From Candidatus Latescibacterota bacterium (GTDB lineage: Bacteria > Latescibacterota > UBA2968 > UBA8231), in contig OZ242318.1 of the NCBI GenBank assembly GCA_965208105.1, positions 4,192,001-4,256,000 on the forward strand: a stretch of 64,000 bases of DNA, given 5' to 3'. Position numbers and translations under genes: made by a program. How positions within the stretch are numbered: position 1 is the first letter of the stretch; every line of letters begins with the position of its first letter. Positions 9,360 to 26,666 of this stretch are shown one piece after another. Below the pieces are notes generated by a model. It did no database searches and was not told the origin of the DNA. It was given only the letters and a program-made list of their open reading frames with translations.

Positions 9360-10808
9360 CTAAAGTGAAACCGAGAACAGGCGGGCCCGGCAAAGCTCTA
9401 TCCGCAGGCACAGATCCCTGCCCTTCAATGGCGACAGGTCGCTGGTTCCGTTCCAGCTCACCTCCGCCTCGAGGTGGTCGCCCCGAACCTCGGCGCAATC
9501 GGCGAAGCTGTAACCTTCCATGGGCTCCAGATGGGCGGGCGGCCACAGGGTGGGCTCGATCAATTCCACCCGGATCCAGCCATTGGGGGCGGTCTGGCAG
9601 TTGAGCAGCAGTGGGGCTCCGCTGGCGGGCAGTTGATTGAGAGTGACCCGGCCCGTCTCCGCGGCCTCCAGGGCAACCAGGCGGTCACGGGTCCATGTCG
9701 CCCAGCGGATCTCACCCCTGGACCGCTCGGGCTCGTAGTAGTAGCTCTCGTTGTGGAGCTCCTCCTCGCCGCGGCAGATCAGGCCCCAGCGCTCACCATC
9801 AAGGGGGACAAGGCCCGGCCCCGGATAGATCCCCCCCTTGTACGGATGGGAGGGGGGAATGACCGGTTTGCGCTCGGGCCACGACCAGTTGAACCCGTCG
9901 CGGCTCACCGCGATGCGCACCTCAACGCAGTCGAGCAGGCGACGGTAGATGGCCGGGAACATCAGGTGGAAGTCCCCTGACCCGGGATAGGGAGAGTACC
10001 CGTTGGTGTAGTAGTCGTCCGTGGGTGGTTCATCGCCGTCGGGCTGCAGCACGATGTCCGGTTGCGGCCAATGGCGGAAATCGGCGGTCTCGGAGCGCGC
10101 TATGCTGCGCCTCCTTCCGGCACTGGAGCGCCAGTAGCCCACGTATTTCCCGCTGTCCTCGTCGTAGAGCACGACGTTCTGCGTATCGCAAAACTTCTCG
10201 AAAAGGGGCTCGTCGAGGAAGGTCCAACGAAGCCCGTCGGGTGAAACCGCGCCGTGGACCGCGCCTACCAGCTTCAGTTCCTTTCCATAGATCTCCGCCG
10301 GAGGAATGCCGCGCTCCTCGAGCTCGGAAAGGGCGCGCTCCAGCTCTGCGCCGGCTAGGCGCGTCCCCTTGCGGTCGGCCGATGCCTGCATGGTCACCAG
10401 CTTGTAGCGCTCGGACTCGGGGGCTGCCGGGTCCAGGAATACGCTGCCTTCGATGCTTCTGTCGAGCACCAGATTGTTGGCCCTGGAGCCTTCGTGGTCA
10501 ACCAGGTCGAGTTCGGGTTTGGTCCAGGCGAAGCCGTCGTCGCTCTCGGCGTAGGCCAGCCCCTCCTTGCAGCCGTACCACATGCGGTACTTGCCTTCAT
10601 CGCAGCGGGCGGTGACGTAGCCGGGGGTGGTGCCTTCCCATGGTTTGTCGAGGACCACCACGGGATCGGTGATGGCCGCGGGCTGCACTGCAAGTCTGAC
10701 CTCCTGCGGCGCCTCGCTGATGAAGGCGGTGCCGTCCTCGTCGTAGCCGGTGGCTCCTGGCCAGATTCCATGCCAGTCCAGGAACAACTCCTTCGTGCGC
10801 GCGCTCAT
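9360..10808 (-). CDS. Beta-propeller glycoside-hydrolase-like protein, paralog 2
   Basis: AYAESDDGFAWTKPEL, AVSPDGLRW, CDTQN, AVSRDGFNW; clearly homologous to 4256..5758 and 10819..12342. Confidence 0.7.
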   Translation of the reverse strand: MSARTKELFLDWHGIWPGATGYDEDGTAFISEAPQEVRLAVQPAAITDPVVVLDKPWEGTTPGYVTARCDEGKYRMWYGCKEGLAYAESDDGFAWTKPELDLVDHEGSRANNLVLDRSIEGSVFLDPAAPESERYKLVTMQASADRKGTRLAGAELERALSELEERGIPPAEIYGKELKLVGAVHGAVSPDGLRWTFLDEPLFEKFCDTQNVVLYDEDSGKYVGYWRSSAGRRRSIARSETADFRHWPQPDIVLQPDGDEPPTDDYYTNGYSPYPGSGDFHLMFPAIYRRLLDCVEVRIAVSRDGFNWSWPERKPVIPPSHPYKGGIYPGPGLVPLDGERWGLICRGEEELHNESYYYEPERSRGEIRWATWTRDRLVALEAAETGRVTLNQLPASGAPLLLNCQTAPNGWIRVELIEPTLWPPAHLEPMEGYSFADCAEVRGDHLEAEVSWNGTSDLSPLKGRDLCLRIELCRARLFSVSL

Positions 10809-10818
10809 GAGCCTCCTC

Positions 10819-12342
10819 CTACATCAGGGTTGAGAATACCCGCGCCCGGCAGAGTTGCAGGCACAGGCAGATGTTGCGTCCCTTCAATGCCGAAAGATCG
10901 GCGTTGCCCTTGAAGCGGACTTCGCTATCCAGGCCGTCCCCCCGCACCGGGTCGCAGTCATCGAAGCTGAATCCCTGGATGGGTTTGATCTTCTCGGGGG
11001 GCCACAGCATGGGTTCCACGAACGCTGCCCGCACCCATCCACCCGGCTCGGTCTGGCAGTTGAGGAGGAGCCGCTCGCCCCGGCAGACCCGGGGCAGGAG
11101 GGTCACCTGTCCCTGCACCTCCGCCTCGAGGGCGACGAAGCGGTCGCGCTTCCATACAGCCCAGCGATGGTAGACATCCTGGTCGTAGTTATCGTAGTAG
11201 TAGCCTTCGTTGTGGCGGTGGCTCATGCAGATATAGGGAACTCCCCAGTGCGACTGGTCCAGCGGAAAAATCCCGTGGCGCACGTAGATGCCGCCGTCCT
11301 CGCACCTCTCGGGAGATCCCAGCTTGAGGATGGGGTCCCTGTGGCGGAACCAGGTAATGCCGTTGCGGCTCACCGCGATCTGGGTGTCGACCACGTCCGT
11401 GCCGCGGTGGAAGATACTGGGAAACATGATGTGGTAGTTCCCGGTGGGATAGGGAGCGTAGGCGTTGGTGTAGATGTCCTGCACAGGCGGGTCGTCGGCG
11501 TCGGGCTGGACCACGATGGTGGGAGTGGGCCATTGGCGGAAATCGCCGGTCTCGGCGCGGCCGATGCAGCGCCAGGGGTTGGGCGGCCACACCGTGGGCA
11601 CGGTCTCGCGGAACATGTTGTGGCGGAAGTAACCCACGTAGCTGTTCCTCTCCTCATCGAAGAAGACGATGTTGTCCGAGTCGCAGAACATCTCCAGGAG
11701 CGGCCGCTCCAGCTGGGTCCAGCGCAGCCCGTCGGGGGAAACCGCGCCCATCAGGTTGCCCATCAGCCCGATCTCCTCCAGGATCTCCTGCTCGCTCTTG
11801 CCCTGGGCGCACAACTCGGTGCGCAGCTTGAGCGCATCGGGCTCGTCCTCGGCCCCTTCCATGTGACCGCCTCCGCGTTTCCACCAGCCCTTCATGCCCA
11901 CCATCTTGTAGCGTTCGGCCGGGGGTGCCTGGGGATTGGTGTCCAGGAAAATGTGTCCTTCCAGATCGCTGTCGATGATGTTGTTCTCCCTGGAGCCCTC
12001 GAACTCGCACAGTCCCAGCGACGGTTTTTCCCAGGCGAGGCCGTCGTCGCTTTCGGCATAGCAGGTTGCGCTCCCGGACCACCCCCGCGGCTGGGTGTGA
12101 TACCACAGCCGAAAGCGGCCGTCATGGTGCATCAGGGTGGAAATATTCACCCTGCCGCCCTCCCAGGGACGATCGTTGTCCATCTCGAAATCCCGTTTCT
12201 CCTGGGGAGGCTGCACGGAGAGCTTCACCCCGGTCGGAAACTCGCCGATGAAGGCGCGGCCGTCCGCCTCGTATCCGGAAGCTCCCGGCCACAGCTCGAA
12301 CCAGTCGAGAAACGGTACTGGAGTTTTGGCATCCTCGCTCAT
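10819..12342 (-). CDS. Beta-propeller glycoside-hydrolase-like protein, paralog 3
   Basis: CYAESDDGLAWEKPSLG, AVSPDGLRW, CDSDN, AVSRNGITW; same C-terminal domain as paralogs 1 and 2. Confidence 0.7.
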   Translation of the reverse strand: MSEDAKTPVPFLDWFELWPGASGYEADGRAFIGEFPTGVKLSVQPPQEKRDFEMDNDRPWEGGRVNISTLMHHDGRFRLWYHTQPRGWSGSATCYAESDDGLAWEKPSLGLCEFEGSRENNIIDSDLEGHIFLDTNPQAPPAERYKMVGMKGWWKRGGGHMEGAEDEPDALKLRTELCAQGKSEQEILEEIGLMGNLMGAVSPDGLRWTQLERPLLEMFCDSDNIVFFDEERNSYVGYFRHNMFRETVPTVWPPNPWRCIGRAETGDFRQWPTPTIVVQPDADDPPVQDIYTNAYAPYPTGNYHIMFPSIFHRGTDVVDTQIAVSRNGITWFRHRDPILKLGSPERCEDGGIYVRHGIFPLDQSHWGVPYICMSHRHNEGYYYDNYDQDVYHRWAVWKRDRFVALEAEVQGQVTLLPRVCRGERLLLNCQTEPGGWVRAAFVEPMLWPPEKIKPIQGFSFDDCDPVRGDGLDSEVRFKGNADLSALKGRNICLCLQLCRARVFSTLM

Positions 12343-12452
12343 ATCATCTCTCTTTCTTCCAAATTAAAGCCCCTGGCAAGATGCGGTGCGGGTGCGCCCG
12401 GGACATCGGCCGCCCCGGTTGGGGCCGCCCGACGGCATCCTGCCAGGGACTT

Positions 12453-14441
12453 TCAGAACCGCAGGTGAATGATCTCGTGAACGCCCACGTCGGGAAGAAA
12501 GCACCTGATCCCATCCCCACTCCTCTCCCAGCTCAAGGTGCGGTCCCCCGGTTGAAGGGATGCTGAAGCTGGCGCGGCCGGACAGCGCAGACGCAGAGTG
12601 CGCGGACCACCGCCGGGCACCTGCTCCACGAAATAGCTGCCCGCCCCCATGTCGCGGTCCGCCCCGTGGTTCACCAGGTGAACCAGCCATTCATCCGGCC
12701 TCTGGCGCACCGCCACCTCGAGTTGCCCGGCCGGGTCCAGCTCCGCCACCGGCCGCGGGTGCAGGTTTCGCAGTTCACCCAGTACCAGGTCGCGCAGTGC
12801 CGGAGCCTGTACGTTTCTGTAACCGTCGAAGACATGGCCCGCCAGGGTCGCGACCTTTCCACGGCCAAGCTGGTGCAGGTACGAAACCGGGACCCCTTGC
12901 AAGGGTTCGAAGCTCGAAACGTCCCAGAGCTGCCCCCGTGCCCGTGCATCACCGCCCCGCGCCTTCGCAGCCTTGTAGAAGACCCGGGCCCATCCCGACG
13001 GCAGGAGGGCCCGAAGCGCCACCTTTTCCAGCGGGTCCTCGGCGCTTTCCAGGGATTCCCATCCTGCGACTCCGGTCAGGTCGGCGCTCTCCTCGGGGAG
13101 GGGCAGACTCAGCAGCAGACGCCCCCCGCCGCGCACGAATTTCCTCAGCGCCTGCACCAGTTCCCGGGAAAGATGGGACACCCCCGGCAGCAGCGCGACG
13201 GGCCAGTTGGAACCCCGTTCAATAAAGGCTTCCTCGCTGACCAGATCGTGGTGCAGTCCCGCCTCCACCAGCACCTGATGGGCGGCGAAGACCCGGTGCA
13301 CGTCCTCGGTCTCCAGCTGCAGCTTGGGATCGTTCTCCCACCCGGCGGCTGAAACAATCAATGCCAGGTCCGCCACCGAGGTCGTCCCCGTGCAGAAGGG
13401 CTGGCGCTCCCGCGCGAAACGGCCGACCGCCGCCAGGGTCGGAGGATCCTCCACTCGAAAAGCCGCTTCCCGCGTCGGCGTCACCCAGTAGAACAGGCGC
13501 GCTCCGTTGGCAAGCAAGGCTGCCGCTTCCTGCTCCATCTGCGCGGCGGACTTGTGGTAGGTGTACCCCCGGGTGCGGTAGTCCAGGCTGAAATCGCAGA
13601 CCATGATGTCGAAGGGCAGGCCCTGATGATTCATGAACCGAGCCTCGCGCCCGGCCGCCTTGACCCCGTGGTTGAGCGGCACGTCACCGGACAGCCAGTC
13701 CACCTTTCCCCGGCTCGCCCACGGATTGCGCAGGGTGTGCAGCCAGTTCACCGAGAACAGGCAACCGGGATGGACCTCCCGGATCAGGTCGCGGACCTTC
13801 TGCAGGTAGTCCATGTAGGTGCCGCGGCAGAAGCGCAGAGCAAGAGGCCAGTCCTGGTGTCCATGGTCTCTTGGCACCTTGCGGCCGCCGTGGCGGCTGG
13901 CGAAGATTTCCTCGCAGGAAGCGCAGTAACACACCTGGGAAACCCACACGTCCCCATCGAACCACATTCCGTCAGGGCGGTAATTTTCCAGGATCTCGCG
14001 GATCTGGGGGAGCAGGTACTCGTCGACGTACTGGCTGTTGTGGCACAGGAAGAAGCTGTGCATGGTGTCGCCTTCCCACTTCTCTTCCGTGCCGTAAAAA
14101 TTCCCATCGGCCTTGACGATGCGCCAATCCTCGTGCCCGTCCGCCGCCACCGCGTCCACCAGGCTGGAGTAGTAGACGCTGAAGCGCACCCCCATCTCGC
14201 GGCACACGTCGCGATAGACCGCCAGCACATCTTCGCTGTGCGCGCTGCTCACCTGCCCGACCTTCGTAGGGTAGGATGCGATCCCCGGATGTCCCTTGGA
14301 GTGCACCTGGATCATGTCCGGCTGCACTTCGCCCAGGAACTGGCGCAGGATGCCGCGGCTGATGCCCGCTCCCGTCCTGGCATCCTTGCGGGTGTGGTAA
14401 TCCACGTGGACGTTGAAGAAGCTCTCTTCGTACCAGTTCAT
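12453..14441 (-). CDS. Glycoside hydrolase, GH151/GH29-like alpha-L-fucosidase fold with a beta-galactosidase trimerisation-like domain
   Basis: HVDYHT, VHSKGHPGIASYPTKVG, LCHNSQY, YRPDGMWFD and LRKFVRGGGRLL. Start taken at MNWYEE. Confidence 0.72.
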   Translation of the reverse strand: MNWYEESFFNVHVDYHTRKDARTGAGISRGILRQFLGEVQPDMIQVHSKGHPGIASYPTKVGQVSSAHSEDVLAVYRDVCREMGVRFSVYYSSLVDAVAADGHEDWRIVKADGNFYGTEEKWEGDTMHSFFLCHNSQYVDEYLLPQIREILENYRPDGMWFDGDVWVSQVCYCASCEEIFASRHGGRKVPRDHGHQDWPLALRFCRGTYMDYLQKVRDLIREVHPGCLFSVNWLHTLRNPWASRGKVDWLSGDVPLNHGVKAAGREARFMNHQGLPFDIMVCDFSLDYRTRGYTYHKSAAQMEQEAAALLANGARLFYWVTPTREAAFRVEDPPTLAAVGRFARERQPFCTGTTSVADLALIVSAAGWENDPKLQLETEDVHRVFAAHQVLVEAGLHHDLVSEEAFIERGSNWPVALLPGVSHLSRELVQALRKFVRGGGRLLLSLPLPEESADLTGVAGWESLESAEDPLEKVALRALLPSGWARVFYKAAKARGGDARARGQLWDVSSFEPLQGVPVSYLHQLGRGKVATLAGHVFDGYRNVQAPALRDLVLGELRNLHPRPVAELDPAGQLEVAVRQRPDEWLVHLVNHGADRDMGAGSYFVEQVPGGGPRTLRLRCPAAPASASLQPGDRTLSWERSGDGIRCFLPDVGVHEIIHLRF

Positions 14442-14630
14442 TCCAGGGTTCTCTCCGGTGATGGAGTTCGCATGCCTGCTGCCCGAGTGCCGGGACGGAG
14501 GTTCAGGCGAATCGCACCGGTATCCGCGTTTTCCGCATTCGGTCTGTTGCCCGCCAGGGTAAGGAGACGGGCGGAATCCGGCGGCCGCCGCCGTCCTTTC
14601 GGCCTGCACCTGAATTCATGCCGGCAGGTC

Positions 14631-17591
14631 CTACAACGGGCGCCCGTACTCGGTGTACCCTATCAGGGTGCGGACAAAGAAGGACCGGGTTTCATATTCC
14701 CTGAAGCGCTGAATCTCGGCGTCGAAGTCGAGCTGGTCATTGGAGATCCCGACAATGGTATACAGATCGTAGCCGAAGTAGCGCGAGCGGTTGGTAAGGG
14801 TGATGAAGGAGGTGCGTCGTTCCTGACTGTTGCGGTCGGCTATCTGGTCATCGCGCCGGTATGGAAGGGGGCCCATTCCCTGGATCCCCGCCCGCAGCGC
14901 CGTTCGATCCAACAATTGGTACTCCAAGCCCAGGATCGGGATCGAGCGGGTCTCGGCCAGCAGATCCTCGTTCTGCTGCCGGTCGGCCAGGCGCAGCAGC
15001 ATGAATTTGTACTGGGGTGTCACCTTCAGCTTGCCCCAGTACCAGGTGTAGTCGACCCTGCTGACCCAGGTCCAGAAGTCAAGACGCCGCTGTCGCTGGA
15101 AGATTCCGGGACGCAGCTGCCCGCCCTGCTGCCAGTTCAGCTGCAGTCGCCACTTCTGCACGACATTGAGGGTGGACCATGGGCTGAGGTTCCCTTCGAG
15201 GTAGGTATCGTTGACATAGCTGTCCTGGAAGTAGAGCAGGTCCGGCCGGAAGCGGCTTGCCCAGATGGGGGGAGCGTTCGATCTGGAATTGGAGAAACGA
15301 ACTCCTCGTCCTCCGAAGCCACCTCCGCGCAGGGGGATGTCGTCCACCGTGGTGAACTCGTTGGCTATGTCATCCCGCACCCGGCGGAAGCGATTCTCGA
15401 AGAAGAGCCTTCTGAGAAGCGCCGTGCCTTCCCGGCGTTCCAACCCCTCGCGGAGGTAACTCAGCAGCGCGTAGTTCGAGTTGTTGCGCCCATTGCCGGC
15501 AACCTGATCGATCCGGAATCTTCCCGCTCCCAGGGACCAGTGGCGAGTCAGGTTCCACTGTCCGAAGAGGTGGTAGCCGCGCTCGTCGTAGTAGTAGGGA
15601 TAGTCCACCACGCCGTCGTCCTCCCGGTGGTCCGGCTCGTTGTTGTTGTTGCGGTCCAGGCCATAGGCGTAGATATTGGGCTCGACGTCGTACATCAGGA
15701 AGGGCTCGTCGAAATCGGGGATGTGATTGAGGTTGCGGTTTGTCTCCGGGGCTCCGTCCTTGTCCTCGTCCTGCCCGATGAAAATCCCGTCCATGTCGAA
15801 GTCCCTGCTGTCGTTGGGCAACCCCACTATGTTGCCGAAGCGGGCGTCGGGGTAGCGGTCGCCGTCGTCGTTGTCCTGCACCGTCTGCCAGTAGGCGGTC
15901 TCGTTGGTCAGTCCGTGCAGATTGGAGTAACTCAGGCCGAGCCCGAAGTCGAGGTAGGTGCGCATCTCCGTCTGGAATTCCGGATTGATGGAAAAATACT
16001 CGCCGCCTATGCGGCCCTGGCCGAACCAGTGCGAGGCGTTCAGGTAGTAGGCGTCGCCCCGGTCCTTGAAGCGGGCCCCGTCGTCGAGGAACGGGGCTCC
16101 TTCCACCTGGGCGGGATAGCGTGAATACACACTCGAACGGGCGTATTCTCCTATGACCTCCAGCCCGGGAAGGCGCAGTTGCAGGTCCGCACTGTAGACG
16201 AAGTTGGCGGTGTTCTCTCCAACCTTGAAGCGCCGCCGTTTGAGGTTCGACAGGTCGTGCACGTTGCCCGGAGAACGCAGGACCGTTCTGTAGTAGGTGC
16301 TCAGATACTGGGCATGGTAGGTCTTGCCGCGGGGGTCGGTCAGGCTCAGGACCGCCACCTCCACCCGGTAGTCATTGCCCAGGATGGCTTCCACCTCCAG
16401 GGACTCGACCATGGGTTCCTGCGACAGGTCGAAGAGGAAGGCCAGTTGCTCGTCGCCGTTTGACTGCAGGGACCCCTGGGAAGTTTCTATCGCGAAGCTC
16501 CCCAGCAGGCCGCTGAGGTTGGTGGATTTGCTCACGTCTATACCAGCTTCGTAGTCCAGGCGGTAATAGTAGTCCGAGTAGAGAGGGATCTCGCGCTCGC
16601 GATAGTAGAGATTGCCTACGAAGCGGCCTATGTCCACCGGTCCTCCAGGAGCTGGTCGGACATAGTTGGCCTGCCGGAACCGGCCGGTGGCCTGCGAGAC
16701 CGTTCCAACCTGAGGGGTGACACCGGCCAGGTGGCGGATCACCTGGGACTCCAGGTCCGGCCTCGCTTCGCCATTGACTATCAGTTGAACGTCCTGGACC
16801 ACGGCCCCGCCCATGCCATCCTCGGGTGAATCGTCCGAAAAGCGCACGATAACCCGGTGGATGAGCGGCTGATCGGGCCGCAGCCGGCCTTTGATCCCGT
16901 TGCCCGGCTGGGTGCTCTGGTAGACGTGCTGGTTCACCCAGTTGAGTCCCAGCTGCAATATGCCGAGATCGGCCTGCATCCGGCTGCCCAAAAGCAGGGT
17001 GGAATCGTCGGCGCGGTGGGCGTCCTCGTCGATCCAGATAGGCTGGTACTCGATATAGGACCTGGGCCGTTCGACCCGCGAGGCCAGGCCGGTGAATTTG
17101 AGGCGAGGAGTGGAAACATCCAGGCGCACGCCGTTGTAGTCCGTTTTGGACAGGGTCAGGGGGGTGAAGCGGGCTATCATCCCATCGCCGGCAATGGCGC
17201 GGTAGCCCCAACTGCCGTAGCCGTCGCGGCCCACCACCAGGTAGTCGAAAACGGCTGACCAGACTCCCAGGTCCTTGTAGATGCGGCTGCCGTAATCCAG
17301 GCCAGCGGTGCGGGTCTCGCTCCAGCCAAAGATGGGATAGCCGGTGATGAGATAGTTCCCCAGGGAGTTGTAGTAGTCCCTCGGGGCATCGTCGAAGGGA
17401 AACTCGTGGTTGGGATAGTGGGTGTATTGCTGAATGGCGAAATTGCGGTAAGCCGGCTGTGCCTTGCGCAAAAATGGCCGCGCTTCGGTCATCTGGTCGA
17501 GGTAAATTCTATGCTCTTCAGCGCCGGCTGCCGTTATGGCGGCTGCCCAAATCAGGCACCACGCCAAGTGTCGTAGGGATGAGCCCAGCAT
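14631..17591 (-). CDS. Large exported hypothetical protein, probably outer membrane, with DxDxDG-like loops
   Basis: Signal peptide MLGSSLRHLAWCLIWAAAITAAGA; many aromatic alternating strands; DNDDGD, DFDMDG, DEDKDG and DRNNNNEPD motifs. Confidence 0.65.
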   Translation of the reverse strand: MLGSSLRHLAWCLIWAAAITAAGAEEHRIYLDQMTEARPFLRKAQPAYRNFAIQQYTHYPNHEFPFDDAPRDYYNSLGNYLITGYPIFGWSETRTAGLDYGSRIYKDLGVWSAVFDYLVVGRDGYGSWGYRAIAGDGMIARFTPLTLSKTDYNGVRLDVSTPRLKFTGLASRVERPRSYIEYQPIWIDEDAHRADDSTLLLGSRMQADLGILQLGLNWVNQHVYQSTQPGNGIKGRLRPDQPLIHRVIVRFSDDSPEDGMGGAVVQDVQLIVNGEARPDLESQVIRHLAGVTPQVGTVSQATGRFRQANYVRPAPGGPVDIGRFVGNLYYREREIPLYSDYYYRLDYEAGIDVSKSTNLSGLLGSFAIETSQGSLQSNGDEQLAFLFDLSQEPMVESLEVEAILGNDYRVEVAVLSLTDPRGKTYHAQYLSTYYRTVLRSPGNVHDLSNLKRRRFKVGENTANFVYSADLQLRLPGLEVIGEYARSSVYSRYPAQVEGAPFLDDGARFKDRGDAYYLNASHWFGQGRIGGEYFSINPEFQTEMRTYLDFGLGLSYSNLHGLTNETAYWQTVQDNDDGDRYPDARFGNIVGLPNDSRDFDMDGIFIGQDEDKDGAPETNRNLNHIPDFDEPFLMYDVEPNIYAYGLDRNNNNEPDHREDDGVVDYPYYYDERGYHLFGQWNLTRHWSLGAGRFRIDQVAGNGRNNSNYALLSYLREGLERREGTALLRRLFFENRFRRVRDDIANEFTTVDDIPLRGGGFGGRGVRFSNSRSNAPPIWASRFRPDLLYFQDSYVNDTYLEGNLSPWSTLNVVQKWRLQLNWQQGGQLRPGIFQRQRRLDFWTWVSRVDYTWYWGKLKVTPQYKFMLLRLADRQQNEDLLAETRSIPILGLEYQLLDRTALRAGIQGMGPLPYRRDDQIADRNSQERRTSFITLTNRSRYFGYDLYTIVGISNDQLDFDAEIQRFREYETRSFFVRTLIGYTEYGRPL

Positions 17592-17714
17592 ATGCTTTCT
17601 CCTTGCAACCCGATTCGTTCTTCCAGGGACATCGGAACTATGTATTTCTCCCGGCAAAATATAATAAGAAACCATCCCATTCCCTAAAGGTTTCCTCCAT
17701 CAAGGGAGCGAATC

Positions 17715-18515: not shown

Positions 18516-18927
18516 GGCGGCTCTCCTCGATGGGCGACCAGGACCCGGACGGTGTCCTGCACGCGGACACCCGGGGGAGAAGCGGTGAGGTCGCGGTTGA
18601 AGTATCGACACCAGATAACATGGCAGGATTCCACGTCCCGTTGCCAACCTTGATTCGAACCCCTGCGGTCGGAGATCGGATGGAGCCCACCACGGAGGGA
18701 CGGCTCTGCCCCCCATCTCGCAGGAGTTTCCCGGACCGGAGAAAGGGGCTTGCCGGTTAAGTAAGTTTTCCCATCACCGCAGCGCAAGAGGTCCAGCTTG
18801 ATGGCCCGTAATAAAAAGACGCGATTATCCCCTTGACACAACAAGGATGATTTCTTATAGATGAACAAGTACCACAAGTCGGCGCGGACCTCTGAAAGAC
18901 TCAGCCCTCGGGAGGGCCGCGGAAGAA

Positions 18928-20094
18928 TCAGGCGCGGTTGGCGCCGTAGGCCGCCTTGAACAAGGCGCCCCTCTCGAAACGGTTCAGATTGAAGCGCGAG
19001 ATGTCGATGGGAGGAGATCCCGAAAGGATCTCCGCGGCCATTAGTTCGCCGATGGCCGGGCCGATCTTGAAGCCGTGTCCGCTGAACCCGGCGCACAGGT
19101 AAAATCCGTCGACTGCCTCCGCCCTGCCCAGAATCGGGTGCCAGTCCGGGGTAACATCGTAGAGCCCGGTGTAGGAATTCAGCGCGAGGGCATCGGCAAA
19201 GACCGGCCAGCGCTCCCGGAAGCGCCTCCCGGTTTCCTCGATGAACTCGGCGTCGACCTCCTGGTTGTAACCATCCGCCTCGACGTACTCGTATTCCTTG
19301 GGAAAACCGCGTCCGACAAGGGTTCGCGCCGCCCCTTCGGGGCGATAGTAGATCGCCTTGGCCATGTCCGAGAAGCAGAGCCGGGGCGGCCCCCCGCCTC
19401 CCGCGGTCTGGTAGACGATCTCCTCCTCCCGGGTGACCCGGATGGGCACGGCGACCCCCGCCCACGCGCCAACCCGCGCTGCCCATGGACCGGCGGCGTT
19501 GACCACGACCCTGGTTGAAATATCTCCCTTGCCGGTGCGCACGGCCGCAATGGCGCCACCTTCGACAACAATCCCCTCCACGGCCGTAAGCTGCATCAGG
19601 CGGCCGCCCAATTCAGCGAACCGCTTCACGAAGGCATGGGTGCTCAGACGAGGATCGGCGTAGCCGGAATGTGGCTCGTAGACAATGCGGTGGACATCCA
19701 TCAGGTCAATCCGGCCTTCAAGTTCCTTGAGGTCCTCGCGGCTGATCTCCTCCACCTCCACTCCGAGCCGTCGTCCCATCTCCAGGTTTCTGCTCAAGCC
19801 CTCGGAGACCTCCTCGGGAACGAGGAATGCCCAACCGGTGTTGACAAAACCAGGATCTCCACCCACCACATCGTCAAAGTTTCGGAATACGTCGACGCTG
19901 CGTTTGACCATGCGCACCAGTTCCTCGTTGGAGTAGTGCTGGCGAATAATGGCGGCGGACCGTCCCGTCCCCCCGGAGGCGATGAGCTGCTTCTCGAGGA
20001 GCACGACGTCCTTCACCCCCGCCCTTTGCAGGTTGTAAGCTGTCGCAGCTCCGTTGATTCCCGCGCCTATGACCACAACGTCCGCAGTTTGCAT
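18928..20094 (-). CDS. FAD-dependent oxidoreductase (DAO/sarcosine oxidase beta-like)
   Basis: VVVIGAGING, GGTGRSAAIIRQHY, VNAAGPW, YDVTPDWHPILG, GFSGHGFKIGPAIG. Confidence 0.9.
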   Translation of the reverse strand: MQTADVVVIGAGINGAATAYNLQRAGVKDVVLLEKQLIASGGTGRSAAIIRQHYSNEELVRMVKRSVDVFRNFDDVVGGDPGFVNTGWAFLVPEEVSEGLSRNLEMGRRLGVEVEEISREDLKELEGRIDLMDVHRIVYEPHSGYADPRLSTHAFVKRFAELGGRLMQLTAVEGIVVEGGAIAAVRTGKGDISTRVVVNAAGPWAARVGAWAGVAVPIRVTREEEIVYQTAGGGGPPRLCFSDMAKAIYYRPEGAARTLVGRGFPKEYEYVEADGYNQEVDAEFIEETGRRFRERWPVFADALALNSYTGLYDVTPDWHPILGRAEAVDGFYLCAGFSGHGFKIGPAIGELMAAEILSGSPPIDISRFNLNRFERGALFKAAYGANRA

Positions 20095-20171
20095 TTTTCT
20101 CTCCACGAATTTCTAAGTTTCTCAGTCCATGACCCGACGGAGGTTGACCGCGAGTTGGTTCGAACCGGCCC

Positions 20172-22202
20172 TCACCACCAGTGCACGCGATGTCCCGCCG
20201 TGGGAAACCAGATCATGTCCACGACCGTGGACAGAACCACACCCACCACGTAGCCGATTCCCAATCCATAAAAAAAGGGCTTTCCGGCCAGATACGCCTT
20301 CACTCCGCCATAGCGCAGAAGGACCACCTTGATGGCGAAGGCGATGAAGAAATTGATCCAGTACCACCAGGTCGCGTGGGTGTATTGAAAGATCAACCCG
20401 ATGGGATGGATGGGAAACCAGTGAAAGCGGGCGCGCAAAAAGGAGATTCCGGCGGCCTCCAGGAACCCTCCCCACCACAGCGACCACTTGTACAGGTTGG
20501 GCGTGGTGGGGTTGGTGATCAGGTAGGTGATACCGTCGTAAAAAACGGCTGTCCTGCCGCCCACGTAAAGGGTCCCCCCCTCGTCGTAGGCCAGATCGAG
20601 CATGGCCCAGGCCGCCGCCGCGAATCCCACGGGGAATGCAACGAACACAACCGCCGTCACCCACCGGGGTTGGCGCGGCAGGGAAAAAATGCGCAGATGA
20701 TGCGCCATTGCCGGCCACGCCGGGATGGTGAACGGCCCGAAGAAGGCGAAGCTGGTGAGCACTTTGAAGGGGACCAGGCGTTGCGGCGGTATGTAGATCG
20801 AGCCGATTAGCTCCAGAAAGAAGGACTCCCCCTTGAGGTAGGGACGATTGGGATAGATGTAGGCGCAGCCGCTGGCCGCAACCAGCTTGACCGCGACGAA
20901 GTAGGCCAGCACCATCAGCCCGAACATGCCAAGGGCCAGCCACAGGCTCACCCCGAGATGCAGGGCCCAGCCGATCACGTAGGCGGCCGATCCCAACATG
21001 CCGGCCACGGCCCAGCGGTAGCGCCGTACATCCTGCGGGTCTCCCTCTCCGTGCCGCACCTGCTCCCACACCTGGCGGAGATGACGCCGCGCCACCCACA
21101 CCGACCAGAGGAATACGAAGACCATTGCTCCGTGGCTCTCGGTATTGAGGATCATCTGGGGCTCGGAAAAGCGGTTGTTGGCGTTTACCCCGGTGAAGCC
21201 CAGGCTGGGGGTGCCGAAGCGCCGCATCAGAACCATCTTGAACTCGGCCAGCCAGTGGAAGAGCACCATGCTGCCGAGGATGTCCACCGGGCACAGGTAG
21301 ATCACCATCAGCATCAGCGGCATTACGCGGATGAATCCCGACACCAGTCCATTGCCGAATTCGTAATGGTAGTAAGTCCAGAACAGGTCGAAGGAGGGAA
21401 GGCCGGGGGTGAAATAGGTGGTGACGTTATAGAGCAGCGGAAGGAAAACGGCCCCGAATCCTGCCCAGAACAGGCGCGAAAAGAAGATGTCCGGCATGCG
21501 CCTCCGGCCGTCGAAGCCCTGGGTCATGTCCATGGGCATCTGGGCCAGGGGGAAGGTGAGCTTTTCCGCTACCATCCACTGGCGCTGAAACACGATCAGC
21601 AGGCAGAAGCCGAAGGCCACCACCGCCATGGACACCCCCAGCCAATTGAAAATCTGAAGCACCCAGCCGTCCCAGGGCAGGCCCATACCCTCGGGCAGAC
21701 CATACCAGAAGGCGTCGGTGATCCGTCTCGTAGCAGGGGGAAAGGCGTGCCAGGGCACGAAGTTGAAAAATGTTTCCGCCCACTGGTTCTCGGGAGTGGC
21801 AAAGTGGGTCGGGCCCGTCAGGGTGGCGACCCAGGAGTTCATCCAGGAGGGAATGGTCGCCACTACCCATGTCATCGAGAAAAGGGTCAGCAGTTCTCCC
21901 CGGCTCAATGCCAGGCGGGGCCATACCGACTTGATGCCCACATTGAGCAATAGCCACATGGCGAAGGGCATGAACGCGGCGATGGGGTACTGCGACTGCA
22001 CGTAGGTGCCCGATCCCTGGCGCTGGGCGATCTGGATGATGTAGTAGAACATCGCCGCGATGGTCAGCGCTCCCAGCACCACGGCGCGCAGGGTGATCAA
22101 CGGCGAATCTTCACCATCGCGCTCAATTTGGTCGCAATCAGAGAATCGACCTGGAGTAGATCCCTGAGGATTTTCAGTTGCTCTATGGTGGGGAAGGGGC
22201 AT
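20172..22202 (-). CDS. DUF6785/DUF6784-type polytopic membrane protein (putative transporter)
   Basis: TLRAVVLG, LSRGELL, QRQWMVAEKLTFPLAQMP, RFHWFPIHPIG, KVVLLRYGG..Y...KPFFYGLGIG; many TM segments; start uncertain. Confidence 0.75.
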   Translation of the reverse strand: MPLPHHRATENPQGSTPGRFSDCDQIERDGEDSPLITLRAVVLGALTIAAMFYYIIQIAQRQGSGTYVQSQYPIAAFMPFAMWLLLNVGIKSVWPRLALSRGELLTLFSMTWVVATIPSWMNSWVATLTGPTHFATPENQWAETFFNFVPWHAFPPATRRITDAFWYGLPEGMGLPWDGWVLQIFNWLGVSMAVVAFGFCLLIVFQRQWMVAEKLTFPLAQMPMDMTQGFDGRRRMPDIFFSRLFWAGFGAVFLPLLYNVTTYFTPGLPSFDLFWTYYHYEFGNGLVSGFIRVMPLMLMVIYLCPVDILGSMVLFHWLAEFKMVLMRRFGTPSLGFTGVNANNRFSEPQMILNTESHGAMVFVFLWSVWVARRHLRQVWEQVRHGEGDPQDVRRYRWAVAGMLGSAAYVIGWALHLGVSLWLALGMFGLMVLAYFVAVKLVAASGCAYIYPNRPYLKGESFFLELIGSIYIPPQRLVPFKVLTSFAFFGPFTIPAWPAMAHHLRIFSLPRQPRWVTAVVFVAFPVGFAAAAWAMLDLAYDEGGTLYVGGRTAVFYDGITYLITNPTTPNLYKWSLWWGGFLEAAGISFLRARFHWFPIHPIGLIFQYTHATWWYWINFFIAFAIKVVLLRYGGVKAYLAGKPFFYGLGIGYVVGVVLSTVVDMIWFPTAGHRVHWW

Positions 22203-22281
22203 TGAGAGAGGGGGTCTATTCTAGGAGCAGTGCCGAGCCGAGGCGCATTGGCCTCTGTGTCGATAGGGTGGGCTGAACGCA

Positions 22282-22317
22282 AGTAGAGGGATGGATTTTG
22301 CAATCCATCCCTCTACT
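22282..22317 (-). terminator. 16-bp perfect hairpin downstream of secreted gene copy A
   Basis: AGTAGAGGGATGGATT-TTGC-AATCCATCCCTCTACT lies about 28 nt after the stop; the U-tract is weak. Confidence 0.65.
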
Positions 22318-22345
22318 CATGAAGCTGCGAAGCTGGTGATCGAGC

Positions 22346-24298
22346 TTACTTCAGCAGGGTCATCGAATGCGTGGCGGAAAAATCGCCGGCCTGCATGCGA
22401 TAGAAGTAGACTCCGCTCGACACCTGCGAGCCGGCCTGGTCAAGCGCGTTCCAGGTTGTCCGGTAGGTCCCCGCGCTCAACTCCTCGCCCACCAGGCTGG
22501 CCACGGTTTGGCCCACCGCGTTGAACACGTCGATTTCCACGAAGCCCTCGGCGGGCACGTTGAACTCGATGGTGGTCTCGGGATTGAAGGGGTTGGGATA
22601 GGCCGCACCCAGCGAGTAGCTGTCAGGTGTGCCAGCGCTCTCCACCTCTTCCACCGCGGTCATGTCCAGCCTGCCGCTGACCAGATCGTAGGGAATGTGG
22701 AAGAACATGGCCGCCCCGAACTTCTGCCCCTCGATGCGCTCGAAGGTGTGCCGGGTGATGTCGTAGCTGGAATCCCAGTACATGCCGTCCCACGGCCCGC
22801 GCTGACCGGCGTTGGGGCCGTCCCAAGTCGAGCTGCTGCCGATGGTGGAGCGGTCGTGGTCGATGATGTTGATGAAGGTCGACAGCGAGATGACGAGCGG
22901 GCCGACGATCGCCGGATCGGCGAAGATGTTGAAGATCCCCGCGCCGTCGCGGCCGGTGGTCCCGTAGTTGACGCCCAGGGCGTTGTGCCGCGGGCTGAAG
23001 TAGGCGGCTTTGCCGCTGAGATCGGCGTTGTAGCGGATGGGATAGGACGCGTCCACCGTCATGCCCGTCTCCGCCGCCAGCTCGTAGGTCACCCGGTCGC
23101 CCACCAGGTCGCCGTTGCGGTTGACCCAGATGGTGTTGCCGTCGTGGTCGATCTTGATGAGGTTGGGCGAGAGCCAGCCGGACAGGTAGATGCCATCCTC
23201 GTGGACGGACAGGTTGCCCGGTCCGCTGGCGCTGGCCACCTCGTTGCCCTCGTCGTCGACGCTGAAGTTGGTGAACCACTCGGCTATGTCGAGGGACTTG
23301 GTCACCTCGCCGGAGCCCTTGTCCCAGAACTCCACCGAACTGGCCGGCACGTCGGCGCGGCTCCAGTTGGCCGCCACCAGGTTGTTATTCCAGACCTCCA
23401 TCTGCATGATGCCGATGCCGGGGGCGCCGATGGGCGCCAGGCCGTTTTCGGCCCAATCCGTGTCGGCCTCGAAGGTCTGGGCGGCGCGGTTGATGGTCAT
23501 GCGATAACAGCCGGCGCCCTCGTCCGAGCGATGGGTGGTGTAGTAGATGTCCTGCTTATCAGGGTCCGGGTCGCCGCGCATGCCGCCCAGGGTCCGCGCC
23601 CCTTCGAAGTCGGTGACGCTGTTGGCGTCCCAGCGATCCCAAGCGTTGGGGTTGGCGATGAAGTCGGTGCCCAGGACAGAACGGCCGATGTCGCCGGAGC
23701 GGTGGCCGCCCCAGTCGGGCGCGTCGCGGTCGTACTCACCCATCCACACCTCGTTGGTGCGCAGATCGATCCAGGGATCGGCGAAGCCCGTGATCGGGGC
23801 GATGCCCGCCACGGACAAGTCCTCGAGAATGTTCAGACCGATGAGATCGAACTCGAAGGGTCCGGCGCCGGCGGCGTTGCCTTCCCAGTCGTTGCCGTCC
23901 CAGGTGATCACGTTGTTGCCGGCCTCGAAGTCCTGGCCTGCGGTGGAGGCGACGAACAGGGCGGGGCCGGGCTGCAGGCGCAGCCAAGCCTCGAAGGGTC
24001 CTCGCGCACCGGTCGTTGCCTTGGCTCCGTCGCTGGCGTCGTAGACGGCCAGCCACACGCGGGCGCGCTGGTTGAGACTGAAGGGTATGTCCACCGAACC
24101 CCCGCTGTAGCCAACGTCACCGGTACTCATGATGAGTGTATTCACCGCACCGGACTTGACGATGGGAGCCCAGAGGGAGGGATCCATGTTGTCAAAGGAC
24201 GGCTGGGCGGGAAGACCGGTCAACTCTTCGGCCTCCACGGAACCCAGGGCCAAGACAGCAACGGCTACTCCAAAAAGAGTTGCTCGTACTATTCGCAT
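22346..24298 (-). CDS. Secreted acidic beta-rich protein with C-terminal FlgD-Ig/secretion-sorting domain, copy A
   Basis: Signal peptide MRIVRATLFGVAVAVLALGSVEA; N-terminal FlgD-like AGNNVITWDGND; C-terminal AYPNPFNPETTIEF...SSGVYFYRM...SMTLLK; RBS GAGGAG. Confidence 0.85.
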   Translation of the reverse strand: MRIVRATLFGVAVAVLALGSVEAEELTGLPAQPSFDNMDPSLWAPIVKSGAVNTLIMSTGDVGYSGGSVDIPFSLNQRARVWLAVYDASDGAKATTGARGPFEAWLRLQPGPALFVASTAGQDFEAGNNVITWDGNDWEGNAAGAGPFEFDLIGLNILEDLSVAGIAPITGFADPWIDLRTNEVWMGEYDRDAPDWGGHRSGDIGRSVLGTDFIANPNAWDRWDANSVTDFEGARTLGGMRGDPDPDKQDIYYTTHRSDEGAGCYRMTINRAAQTFEADTDWAENGLAPIGAPGIGIMQMEVWNNNLVAANWSRADVPASSVEFWDKGSGEVTKSLDIAEWFTNFSVDDEGNEVASASGPGNLSVHEDGIYLSGWLSPNLIKIDHDGNTIWVNRNGDLVGDRVTYELAAETGMTVDASYPIRYNADLSGKAAYFSPRHNALGVNYGTTGRDGAGIFNIFADPAIVGPLVISLSTFINIIDHDRSTIGSSSTWDGPNAGQRGPWDGMYWDSSYDITRHTFERIEGQKFGAAMFFHIPYDLVSGRLDMTAVEEVESAGTPDSYSLGAAYPNPFNPETTIEFNVPAEGFVEIDVFNAVGQTVASLVGEELSAGTYRTTWNALDQAGSQVSSGVYFYRMQAGDFSATHSMTLLK

Positions 24299-24331
24299 TT
24301 GGTTCTTCTCCTCTTTGGTTAGAATGATTAT

Positions 24332-24442
24332 GAGATGCAAGGAATACATCTCACGACGAAAGAAATGTAAGAATTAATAGAACATTTTCTACAACGGTCA
24401 GGTGATACTGGCTTTCACCTCCTTTCAAACCAAGAGACCTGA
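24332..24442 (-). ncRNA. Candidate structured cis-regulatory 5' leader (two hairpins), copy A
   Basis: Hairpin 24398-24442 has loop GAAAGGAGGTGA; hairpin 24332-24352 is GAGATGTA-TTCCT-TGCATCTC. Both are conserved in copy B while the spacers diverge. Confidence 0.5.
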
Positions 24443-24495
24443 GGTAGAATTAAACTCAAGTTATTATTAAAGTTACTATATGGTGCAATATGCAA

Positions 24496-24522
24496 TATTG
24501 CCATTATTGCCATTATTGCCAT
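24496..24522. repeat. Three tandem copies of TATTGCCAT
   Basis: Read directly from the sequence; absent from the paralogous leader. Confidence 0.9.
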
Positions 24523-24539
24523 TATTATATATAACTCCA

Positions 24540-24570
24540 ATTAAATACAAAAATTCCATTTGAATGTCAA
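24540..24570 (-). promoter_or_regulatory. Putative sigma70-type promoter of copy A
   Basis: TTGACA at 24570-24565, then TATTTA (17-nt spacer) or TTTAAT (19-nt spacer). Confidence 0.5.
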
Positions 24571-24649
24571 GTTTTAAATCCATTTAGCGATAGAGGGTTA
24601 CAGCCTGTTGGAAAAATGAATTGGCCTGCGGAATGGTGGCCTGAACGCA

Positions 24650-24685
24650 AGTAGAGGGATGGATTTTGCAATCCATCCCTCTACT
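24650..24685 (-). terminator. 16-bp perfect hairpin downstream of secreted gene copy B
   Basis: Identical to 22282..22317. Confidence 0.65.
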
Positions 24686-24713
24686 CATGAAGCTGCGAAG
24701 CTGGTGATCGAGC

Positions 24714-26666
24714 TTACTTCAGCAGGGTCATCGAATGCGTGGCCGAGAAATCGCCGGCCTGCATGCGATAGAAGTAGACCCCGCTCGACACCTGCGAGCC
24801 GGCCTGGTCAAGCGCGTTCCAGGTTGTCCGGTAGGACCCGGCGCTCAACTCCTCGCCCACCAGGCTGGCCACGGTCTGGCCCACCGCGTTGAACACGTCG
24901 ATTTCCACGAAGCCCTCGGCGGGCACGTTGAACTCGATGGTGGTTTCGGGATTGAAGGGGTTGGGATAGGCCGCACCCAGCGAGTAGCTGTCAGGTGTGC
25001 CGGCGCTCTCCACCTCTTCCACCGCGGTCATGTCCAGCCTGCCGCTGGCCAGATCGTAGGGAATGTGGAGGAACATGCCGGCGCCGAACTTCTGGCCCTC
25101 GATGCGCTCGAAGGTGTGCCGGGTGATGTCGTAGCCGGTTCCCCAGTACATGCCGTCCCACGGCCCGCGCTGACCAGGGTTGGGGCCGTTCCAGGTGGTG
25201 CTGCTGCCGATGGAGGAACGGTCGCGGTCGATGATGTTGATGAAGGTCGACGACGAAATGGGGAGCGGGCCGACGATCGCCGGGTCGGCGAAGATGTTGA
25301 AGATCCCCGCGCCGTCGCGGCCAGTGGCCCCGTAGTTGACGCCCAGGGCGTTGTGCCGCGGGCTGAAGTAGGAGACCTTGCCGCTGAGGTCGGCGTTGTA
25401 GCGGATGGGATAGGACGCGTCCACCGTCATGCCCGTCTCCGCCGCCAGCTCGTAGGTCACCCGGTCGCCCACCAGGTCGCCGTTGCGGTTGACCCAGATG
25501 GTGTTGCCGTCGTGGTCGATCTTGATGAGGTTGGGCGAGAGCCAGCCGGACAGGTAGATGCCATCCTCGTGGACGGACAGGTTGCCCGGTCCGCTGGCGC
25601 TGGCCACCTCGTTGCCCTCGTCGTCGATGCTGAAGTTGGTGAACCACTCGGCTATGTCGAGGGACTTGGTCACCTCGCCGGAGCCCTTGTCCCAGAACTC
25701 CACCGAGCTGGCCGGCACGTCGGCGCGGCTCCAGTTGGCCGCCACCAGGTTGTTATTCCAGACCTCCATCTGCATGATGCCGATGCCGGGGGCGCCGATG
25801 GGCGCCAGGCCGTTTTCGGCCCAATCCGTGTCGGCCTCGAAGGTCTTGGCGGCGTGGTTGACGGTCATGCGGTAGCAGCCGGCGCCCTCGTCCGAGCGGT
25901 GGGTGGTGTAGAAGATCTCCAGCTTGTCGGGGTCGGGATCGCCGCGTATGCCGCCCAGGGTCCGCGCCCCTTCGAAGTCGGTGACGCTGTTGGCGTCGTA
26001 GCGCTCCCAGGCGTTGGGGTTGGCGATGAAGTCGGTGCCCAGGATAGCCCGGGCGATATCGCCGGAGCGGTGGCCGCCCCAGTCGGGCGCGTCGCGGTCG
26101 TACTCACCCATCCACACCTCGTTGGTGCGCAGGTCGATCCAGGGATCGGCAAAGCCCGTGATCGTGGCGATGCCCGCCACGGTGGCGTCCTCGAGAATGT
26201 TAATGGCCACGAGATCGAACTCGAAGGGGCCGGCGCCGGCGGCGTTGCCTTCCCAGTCGTTGCCATCCCAGGTGATCACGTTGTTGCCGGCCTCGAAGTC
26301 CTCACCGGCGTTGGAAGCGACGAACAGGGCGGGTCCGGGCTGCAGGCGCAGCCAAGCCTCGAAGGGGCCGCGTGCACCGGTAAATCCCTTGGCTGCGTCG
26401 CTGGCGTCGTAGACGGCCAGCCACACGCGGGCGCGCTGGTTGAGACTGAAGGGAATGTCCACCGAACCCCCGCTGTAAGCCACGTCACCGGTACTCATGA
26501 CGAGGGGATTCACCGCACCGGACTTGACGATGGGCGCCCAAATAGAAGGGTCTTCCCTGTCAAAGGCCGGCTGGGCGGGCAGACCGGTCAACTCCTCGGC
26601 CCCCACGGCACCCAGTGCCAAAACGGCCATCGCTACTCCGAATAGCGTTGTGCGTACCATTCGCAT
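24714..26666 (-). CDS. Secreted acidic beta-rich protein with C-terminal FlgD-Ig/secretion-sorting domain, copy B
   Basis: Colinear 650-aa paralog of copy A, roughly 90% identical by eye. Confidence 0.85.
   Translation of the reverse strand: MRMVRTTLFGVAMAVLALGAVGAEELTGLPAQPAFDREDPSIWAPIVKSGAVNPLVMSTGDVAYSGGSVDIPFSLNQRARVWLAVYDASDAAKGFTGARGPFEAWLRLQPGPALFVASNAGEDFEAGNNVITWDGNDWEGNAAGAGPFEFDLVAINILEDATVAGIATITGFADPWIDLRTNEVWMGEYDRDAPDWGGHRSGDIARAILGTDFIANPNAWERYDANSVTDFEGARTLGGIRGDPDPDKLEIFYTTHRSDEGAGCYRMTVNHAAKTFEADTDWAENGLAPIGAPGIGIMQMEVWNNNLVAANWSRADVPASSVEFWDKGSGEVTKSLDIAEWFTNFSIDDEGNEVASASGPGNLSVHEDGIYLSGWLSPNLIKIDHDGNTIWVNRNGDLVGDRVTYELAAETGMTVDASYPIRYNADLSGKVSYFSPRHNALGVNYGATGRDGAGIFNIFADPAIVGPLPISSSTFINIIDRDRSSIGSSTTWNGPNPGQRGPWDGMYWGTGYDITRHTFERIEGQKFGAGMFLHIPYDLASGRLDMTAVEEVESAGTPDSYSLGAAYPNPFNPETTIEFNVPAEGFVEIDVFNAVGQTVASLVGEELSAGSYRTTWNALDQAGSQVSSGVYFYRMQAGDFSATHSMTLLK

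Follow-up and report, generated by a model that had tools for sequence, protein, structure and literature searches.

In the present study, a block of nine genes (9360-26666) was analysed in a stretch of DNA from a Candidatus Latescibacterota bacterium, namely positions 4,192,001-4,256,000 of contig OZ242318.1 (GCA_965208105.1); this whole stretch of 64,000 nt is referred to as the window, and coordinates without a locus label are given within it. We favour, with somewhat better than even confidence, the view that the block represents one of multiple copies of a modular cassette for substrate utilisation in the Latescibacterota, organised like a polysaccharide utilisation locus (PUL) and operating by the mechanism proposed below. 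By this purely computational analysis the cassette is a probable new variant of the PUL-like systems. The case is carried by the domain content of the block, by the predicted folds of a large exported protein (O) and an inner-membrane protein (T), and by the non-random linkage with T of O, a secreted protein (B), a propeller family (P), a tetratricopeptide repeat (TPR) lipoprotein and an FG-GAP_3/UnbV_ASPIC protein (ASPIC). The Latescibacterota are widespread, uncultured bacteria that are thought to degrade algal polymers.

The nine genes all lie on the minus strand and are given below in transcription order, together with the elements between them; T9SS denotes the type IX secretion system and ORF an open reading frame.

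24714-26666, minus strand: B_A, a 650-aa secreted protein with a T9SS/FlgD-Ig tail
24650-24685, minus strand: perfect hairpin after B_A, with a 16-bp stem and a 4-nt loop, 29 nt past the stop codon
24299-24713, minus strand: spacer between B_A and B_B, 415 bp, AT-rich, with a Shine-Dalgarno-like AGGAG before the B_B start
22346-24298, minus strand: B_B, a tandem paralogue of B_A
22282-22317, minus strand: second hairpin, after the B_B stop codon, a copy identical to the first
20172-22202, minus strand: T, a 676-aa polytopic inner-membrane protein with DUF6785 and DUF6784
18928-20106, minus strand: DAO-family flavoenzyme, a sarcosine-oxidase-beta-like amine oxidoreductase, leaderless
18641-18915, minus strand: deletion scar, recognised by blastn synteny and tblastn against the related locus L001
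17715-18515, minus strand: Asp/Glu/hydantoin-type racemase, leaderless; the ORF continues to 18716
14631-17591, minus strand: O, a 986-aa exported beta-rich protein
12453-14609, minus strand: GH151-like enzyme (glycoside hydrolase family 151), GHL6/alpha-L-fucosidase-like, leaderless
10819-12342, minus strand: P1, 507 aa, leaderless, with a five-bladed-propeller signature
9360-10808, minus strand: P2, 482 aa, a paralogue of P1

An earlier note on this DNA had described nine consecutive minus-strand genes in this order, and the ORF listing and the Pfam and NCBIfam scans agree with it. The same note had reported that SusC, SusD and ABC systems are missing from the block, and indeed Pfam at E<=0.01 detected neither a Plug or TonB_dep_Rec nor a SusD or ABC domain in any of the nine proteins; T, O, B_A, P1 and P2 remained without Plug, TonB receptor, SusD and ABC domains when rescanned at E<=10, a threshold at which the HMMER filters may still drop very weak matches. 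Its statement that the enzymes lack signal peptides also holds, signal-like leaders being seen in a crude check of N-terminal hydrophobicity on B_A, B_B and O only, and the internal hairpins and spacer of about 400 bp that it mentioned were recovered as two perfect hairpins and 415 bp. The ORF starts of the racemase, GH151-like and O genes are probably over-long.

O is very probably a large outer-membrane barrel outside every solved family, because all the significant fold matches of its model are outer-membrane barrels or translocons. A length of 986 aa from the Met is supported by a homologue at 92% (P0001, 986 aa). The AlphaFold (AF2) model, built on a 41-sequence alignment, has a predicted local distance difference test score (pLDDT) of 75.4 and a predicted template-modelling score (pTM) of 0.73, and DSSP assigned to it about 26-30 long antiparallel strands. 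This array is broken by a well-modelled beta-rich insert of about 220 residues and by an Asp-rich loop of about 100 residues (residues ~570-670), in which several DxDxDG-like motifs occur and the D/G columns are invariant in the alignment. The N-terminal segment of about 90 residues (~26-118) is strongly conserved yet unmodelled (pLDDT <50); judging from the pattern of long and short inter-strand loops, we speculate that it might thread or plug the barrel. When the model was compared with the PDB using Foldseek, 17 of 17 hits at E<=1e-3 were outer-membrane barrels or translocons. The top matches were the Deinococcus SlpA/SDBC structures 8agd, 8ae1 and 7zgx and MtrB (6r2q_B), with E values from 2.4e-8 to 3.9e-7, followed at lower ranks by ushers, TonB-dependent transporters, LptD, SusC and SprA. 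Thus, the expectation of the earlier note that the large exported protein would form a membrane barrel, stated in advance as a point on which it could be refuted, agrees with a model that matches only such barrels, at low TM-scores.

At the sequence level, no Pfam domain besides a weak SlpA_C match was found in O in a scan to E<=10, a sequence search against PDB chains gave nothing useful, and the family profile gave 0 hits there; some O homologues bear a precomputed PF21620 label. The assignment of O as a divergent SusC or TonB-dependent transporter was considered and rejected, as neither a Plug nor a receptor domain is present. The predicted TonB independence of the system has the absence of these two domains as its sole basis. 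The family is large and rich in paralogues: of 8,000 scored candidates, 217 proteins were related to O at E<=1e-3, a single 5.87-Mb contig carries at least 14 of the 120 homologues listed, and an exhaustive profile search of 1.84 billion representatives yielded 753 proteins at E<=1e-3, of which 232 reached E<=1e-30.

T belongs to the DUF6785/DUF6784 family, with 262.6 bits to DUF6785 (cut-off 25) and 64.4 bits to DUF6784 (cut-off 26.4), and its predicted fold, but not its sequence, is OPT-like. The AF2 model, built on 40 sequences, is of higher quality (pLDDT 87.3, pTM 0.88). Its sole Foldseek match in the PDB is barley Yellow Stripe 1 (YS1; 7wst/7wsr), a member of the OPT superfamily, at E 5.5e-9 with the next hit at E 0.1, and the two chains superpose with TMq 0.62-0.63 and TMt 0.68-0.70 at 13% identity. 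An OPT-like fold had been anticipated by the earlier note for the DUF6785 carrier, and the match to YS1 (TM 0.62-0.70) bears this out at the level of the model. The simpler assignment of T to the OPT family itself was dropped at the sequence level for want of a match to that family. T homologues numbered 222 at E<=1e-3, with PF20581 on 120 of the 120 listed and PF20580 also on 117 of them.

The history of T in this block can be followed in L001, the ortholog of the window block on chromosome OZ244619.1, in which T is 91% identical to the T of the window. A second DUF6785 gene, 72% identical to the window T, stands in L001 (L001:13150-15339) between the DAO and racemase genes; at 18641-18915 in the window, only a homologue of its last ~160 nt remains. 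The 67-codon N-terminal extension of the racemase ORF is therefore probably non-coding. Tandem T arrays of up to four genes were observed in L013, L017-L019, L010 and L034, and tandem pairs of O were frequent (L003, L004, L008 and the L036 group). These arrays and pairs suggest either hetero-oligomers or rapid diversification of specificity.

The linkage of the other families with T was determined in related loci, which were collected by searching GTDB species genomes once with an alignment of T; 173 relatives were confirmed, and the best 80 were kept, giving 77 loci. Of these, 65 are labelled as Latescibacter*, 10 as Gemmatimonad* and 2 as 'uncultured bacterium', so that the 12 loci with other labels that nevertheless carry the cassette represent either mislabelled Latescibacterota bins or a wider spread. 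A single 5.9-Mb chromosome, OZ244619.1, holds 16 of the 77. When naive ORFs were compared with the window proteins, O was present in 42 of the 77 loci, B in 33, P in 36-38, the DAO flavoenzyme in 6, GHL6 in 5 and the racemase in 2. Since many loci are mutually orthologous, they were dereplicated at 80% identity of T into 33 groups, for which the distances are given below; the p-values compare the nearest copies with uniform placement and are conditioned on presence within 10 kb, so that they concern spacing inside the loci and not the genome-wide density of O, B and P.

O: within 10 kb of T in 17 of 33 groups; nearest copy within 650 bp in 4 of 17; p 0.02
B: within 10 kb of T in 15 of 33 groups; nearest copy within 650 bp in 8 of 15; p 1.4e-6
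P: within 10 kb of T in 15 of 33 groups; nearest copy within 650 bp in 9 of 15; p 7e-8
Any of O, B and P: within 10 kb of T in 24 of 33 groups
None of O, B and P: 9 of 33 groups

In addition, of the 17 groups with O, 14 have it no more than 5 kb from T (p 0.006). The earlier note had named random placement of its three families as a result that would speak against it; the families are instead placed non-randomly, with O in 17/33 groups, B in 15/33 and B within 650 bp in 8/15 (p 1.4e-6). It had overlooked that the linkage of P to T is as tight as that of B. Of 15 groups that contain O, 5 have a gene with a secretion tail immediately upstream of it, as does the L036 group by Pfam; in the window, L003, L004 and L008, B adjoins T, not O. 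The families also co-diversify with T, as measured by a Mantel statistic that is inflated by the shared descent of whole loci: r was 0.70 for B (reached by 0 of 2000 permutations), 0.26 for O (84 of 2000) and 0.26 for P (22 of 2000). These correlations show that the parts are inherited as a unit and are no proof of physical interaction.

The two B proteins of the block are 92% identical and share an architecture of a leader, an N-terminal FlgD-like Ig domain, about 400 aa without a fold match and a C-terminal T9SS type-A sorting domain. The tail of B_A scored 44.6 bits with FlgD_ig and 28.5 bits with Por_Secre_tail (PF18962), both with Pfam cut-offs of 27, and that of B_B scored 28.6 bits with PF18962 (cut-off 27); the T9SS type-A sorting domain TIGR04183 gave 31.0 and 31.2 bits for the two proteins against a curated cut-off of 23. 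The B profile matched only FlgD Ig domains in the PDB, at profile positions 108-154 and 556-614, and the 51 homologues at E<=1e-3 are all about 640 aa long, with annotation confined to the tail. For the B ectodomain, the protein Atlas gave only leads below 0.9, namely NHL-type propellers with FlgD tails, which are held as a lead only. No T9SS machinery (PorK/L/M/N, SprA, PorU/V) turned up in general domain scans of the 64-kb window, to which this search was confined. The start of B_B was placed at 24298 although its ORF reaches 24349, because the leader and the ribosome-binding site support the former. The hairpins after both genes are identical and belong to the duplicated unit; they may be terminators, attenuators or mRNA stabilisers, and such a pair would fit higher or separately stabilised expression of B. 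A generic terminator scan found 18 sites against 13.8 +/- 3.3 in shuffled sequences, which is not above chance, and the promoter scan gave the same outcome, so that solid evidence on operon structure is limited to these two hairpins.

The remaining genes of the block encode the putative degradative enzymes. P1 and P2 are 49% identical, neither has a Pfam match, and a sequence search with P1 against PDB chains gave nothing useful; Asp-box-like motifs are present in P1. The profile of the family matched GH130 beta-1,2-mannoside phosphorylases in the PDB (9fj8, E 1.1e-12; 7fip, E 4.9e-10) and, more weakly, 3,6-anhydro-alpha-L-galactosidases (presumably GH117), fructosidases, invertases, a GH32 exo-inulinase and a GH43 enzyme. 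These matches consist of several short blade-by-blade stretches without a Pfam family match, and in the protein Atlas P falls in unnamed clusters, of which the nearest named neighbour is BNR_2 at 0.93. At the level of the fold, P would thus be a GH130/GH43/GH32/GH117-like propeller that differs from these families in being about 150 aa longer, with an extra C-terminal domain. The description 'propeller hydrolases' in the earlier note is thus to be read as a fold-level call only.

The DAO flavoenzyme has a Pfam DAO match at 4.6e-65 and its best PDB match is the 'sarcosine oxidase' chain 1y56_B (E 1.7e-60); every NCBIfam equivalog match was under its cut-off. The racemase matches Asp_Glu_race (7.2e-26) from residue 70, and Met68 of its 333-aa ORF is the likely start. 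The GH151-like enzyme scored above the cut-offs for GHL6 (54.9 bits) and Alpha_L_fucos (43.7 bits) and matches the GH151 alpha-L-fucosidase 6tvk at E 2.2e-17 over residues 41-501 of its 718-aa ORF, at low identity; its true start may be Met57 (14441).

Several features outside the block belong to the same families or accompany them.

4160-5758, plus strand: P3, a third P-family paralogue (phmmer 306-351 bits)
27957-30614, plus strand: FG-GAP_3/UnbV_ASPIC protein, divergent from the block (Pfam)
31819-32916, plus strand: TPR lipoprotein, divergent from the block (Pfam), with the ORF starting at 31663, the likely start at Met53 and the lipobox LLGC
35257-37167, minus strand: B_C, a third and more distant B paralogue (phmmer 376-387 bits), with an FlgD_ig tail

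The last of these, B_C, has neither a T nor an O gene adjoining it. The ASPIC and TPR families, which the earlier note had also overlooked, recur in the related loci: ASPIC homologues were found in 30 of 77 loci and 13 of 33 groups, and homologues of the TPR lipoprotein in 42 of 77 loci and 15 of 33 groups, counts to which unrelated TPR proteins may contribute by cross-matching. In the window, as in many other loci, the two are encoded by separate genes next to each other, and they are fused in a single 959-aa protein combining FG-GAP_3/UnbV_ASPIC and TPR repeats in L017 (3522-6401), a Rosetta-stone hint that they possibly cooperate. The ASPIC gene is flanked by a small polytopic membrane protein with a weak MFS-like match (27270-27923), found with T in 3 of 33 groups, and by a spermine-synthase-like protein with a signal peptide (30703-31638), found with T in 2 of 33 groups. 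Elsewhere, parts of these two types occur fused as 'MFS/spermidine synthase' proteins. Beyond P2, the region 32-9325 encodes a GGDEF protein, a UxuA-like dehydratase, a Peripla_BP_6 protein, an sCache_3_2 protein and an MFS transporter convergent with P2; these genes could provide sensors or regulators, or a second importer, for the locus. No regulator gene was found by domain scan within the nine-gene block itself.

The neighbourhood of T was surveyed further with Pfam in 198 of 385 unlabelled ORFs from the 33 representative loci, the others being short, at the edge of a locus or, in the second batch, distant from T. TonB_dep_Rec, Plug and SusD were absent from these 198 neighbour proteins. 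The cargo of the related loci is catabolic and varied, and includes sulfatases, FGE-like proteins, GH95, GH38, GH32, heparinase II/III, BNR_2 and PIG-L deacetylases, together with M19 dipeptidases, a hydantoinase, amidohydrolases, class-III aminotransferases, PhyH dioxygenases, DHDPS-family enzymes, sugar-acid enzymes and amine oxidases.

Taken together with the SusC/SusD-based PULs of Bacteroidota, these loci present both likenesses and differences. Both are multi-copy modular loci in which a surface protein, a large outer-membrane barrel, an inner-membrane importer and degradative enzymes, all of them predicted in the present case, are combined, and in both the genes for the surface protein and the barrel often adjoin. 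However, O is without Plug and TonB_dep_Rec, no SusD-like protein was found in the block or its scanned neighbours, the surface protein B would be sorted by the T9SS and is not a lipoprotein, and the importer T has an OPT fold in place of MFS or ABC architecture. The enzymes of the window copy are all leaderless, so that breakdown would be cytoplasmic, and the linkage is looser, with O in 17 of 33 groups. The OPT/YSL family shares with T the whole-chain fold match to YS1, in contrast with 13% identity, no OPT sequence match and a catabolic rather than metal-homeostasis context; Deinococcus radiodurans SlpA provides the best Foldseek matches of the O model and a weak SlpA_C sequence match, whereas the TM-score is only ~0.2 and O has many paralogues that stand beside transporters and enzymes. 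Latescibacterota are placed with Bacteroidota in the FCB superphylum in a genome analysis of the phylum, which proposes non-specific porins together with ABC, phosphotransferase (PTS) and secondary transporters (PMC4454575). No description of an uptake system such as the present one was found in literature searches, which reached the papers in part, and no paper mentioning DUF6785 or DUF6784 was found in them.

Herein, we propose the following mechanism for the cassette. B would be exported by the Sec pathway and then by the T9SS through its C-terminal sorting domain, and would stay at or near the cell surface, where it would meet the substrate as a binder or a first-acting enzyme. O would provide passage through the outer membrane without the plug domain of a TonB receptor, with its inserted domain, its calcium-type Asp-rich loop and its N-terminal segment as candidate gates. 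T, as a putative secondary transporter of OPT fold, would move the oligomer across the inner membrane, and the leaderless enzymes, namely the GH151-like fucosidase, the two GH130/GH43-like propellers, the flavin oxidoreductase (for secondary amines) and the racemase, would dismantle it in the cytoplasm; the TPR and ASPIC proteins would be frequent accessories. We infer the surface display and binding by B, the passage via O, the direction and energy coupling of transport by T, and the substrate. This set of enzymes, fucosidase-like, propeller, amine oxidoreductase and racemase, together with the OPT fold, tentatively suggests a glycosylated peptide or an amino-acid conjugate as the substrate. 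Fragments of algal hydroxyproline-rich glycoproteins, which Latescibacteria are predicted to degrade in that genome analysis (PMC4454575), are a low-confidence candidate. We entertain more tentatively a stronger form of the proposal, in which a lineage-wide SusCD-independent import machine would have a dozen or more specificities per genome, with T9SS-anchored B on an O gated by its own N-terminus and a calcium-binding loop instead of a TonB-driven plug, TPR and ASPIC proteins that would handle the substrate in the periplasm, T as a proton symporter for intact glycopeptide or oligosaccharide fragments, and the leaderless propellers as a new enzyme family that would then break these down.

Several observations weigh against the proposed cassette and its mechanism. 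The linkage is facultative, as B, O and P are all absent within 10 kb of T in 9 of 33 groups, O is missing in 16 and B in 18, and its statistics carry the conditioning and the shared descent described above. The O model is only moderately confident (pLDDT 75), its TM-scores against solved barrels are about 0.2, its best matches (SlpA) are structural proteins of the envelope, and the SlpA_C match (PF21620) reached 23.3 bits, under the Pfam cut-off of 35 bits. T had no OPT match in Pfam at E<=10, no sequence match among PDB chains and 0 profile hits there at E<=10, and the only protein to which it is structurally related takes up metal chelates rather than glycans. In three loci (L015, L031 and L017), T has ABC importer genes as neighbours, so that T is not always the sole importer. 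No fold was identified for the central ~400 aa of B by PDB sequence and profile searches or by the protein Atlas, and no binding module was recognised in B by the PDB searches; the name 'binder' is a guess for this reason. Finally, in L048 (L048:1-6252) a TPR/YfiO-like gene and two ExbD-domain genes immediately precede, in the same orientation, a distant O-like gene encoding 888 aa (375 bits to the O profile), and because of these ExbD genes some relatives of O may be energised. The undescribed SusCD-like route claimed by the earlier note is thus partly supported, by the linkage and by the predicted O barrel and T fold, and is weakened by the facultative character of that linkage, by the ABC and ExbD genes of related loci and by the conjectural binder role of B.

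Part of this evidence would also fit an ordinary catabolic island, in which T is one of several importers, O a general or structural outer-membrane protein (SlpA-like or a porin) and B a secreted enzyme, all of them co-located through shared regulation or duplication of the locus. The Deinococcus SlpA/S-layer complexes as best structural matches of O, the groups that lack O (16/33) or B (18/33), the ABC systems beside T in three loci, the weak co-diversification of O with T (r 0.26) and the lack of a recognised binding module in B all point in this direction. However, a structural protein of the envelope would not usually have as many paralogues per genome as O does, a distance of 5 kb or less separates O from T in 14 of the 17 groups with O, at least 5 independent groups have a tail-bearing protein encoded immediately ahead of O, and B abuts T and co-diversifies with it strongly (r 0.70); we regard this explanation as rather unlikely. 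It might also be considered that O is a cargo-specific partner for the secretion or surface anchoring of B by the T9SS and not a nutrient channel, the substrate entering via other porins, as certain T9SS cargo genes of Bacteroidota have outer-membrane partners encoded alongside. The tail-bearing gene directly upstream of O in 5 of 15 groups and the L036 group is consistent with this idea, as are the Foldseek matches to SprA (8gl6, 8gl8 and 6h3i) and to chaperone-usher barrels at E 8e-5 to 1e-3. The SprA matches are, however, weaker than those to SlpA and MtrB, 10 of 15 groups have no tail gene beside O, B adjoins T rather than O in the window, L003, L004 and L008, and B carries a type-A sorting domain, which to our knowledge needs no dedicated partner, so that such a role for O appears improbable.

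A further alternative concerns T, which might import or export a metal chelate or a small peptide in a glycan-enzyme context that is coincidental. Characterised OPT/YSL transporters carry metal chelates or small peptides, the only protein structurally related to T, YS1, is an importer of Fe(III)-phytosiderophore, a spermine-synthase-like gene is nearby (30703-31638), and M19 dipeptidases, a hydantoinase and amine oxidases recur in the related loci. Despite this, the spermine-synthase-like gene is found in only 2 of 33 groups, and at least 16 T loci occur in one genome with differing catabolic sets that include sulfatases and glycoside hydrolases, for which reason diversified nutrient specificities fit better than metal uptake. 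Where this alternative concerns a peptide or glycopeptide, it overlaps with the cassette proposed here, and we give the alternative as a whole little credence.

If the stronger form of the proposal is true, it would represent a third architecture for 'selfish' polymer uptake, beside the SusCD-based and ABC-based ones. A repeated cassette in which every core part of a PUL has been swapped for an unrelated family would give a first function to DUF6785/DUF6784 and to the unnamed families O and P, and would supply markers (profiles A1 for O, A2 for T, A3 for P and A4 for B) for substrate prediction in metagenomes where SusCD-based PUL finders see nothing. It would also be a test case of how large substrates cross the outer membrane without a TonB-type plug. 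Moreover, it would show that PUL-like organisation has evolved with different hardware inside the FCB superphylum.

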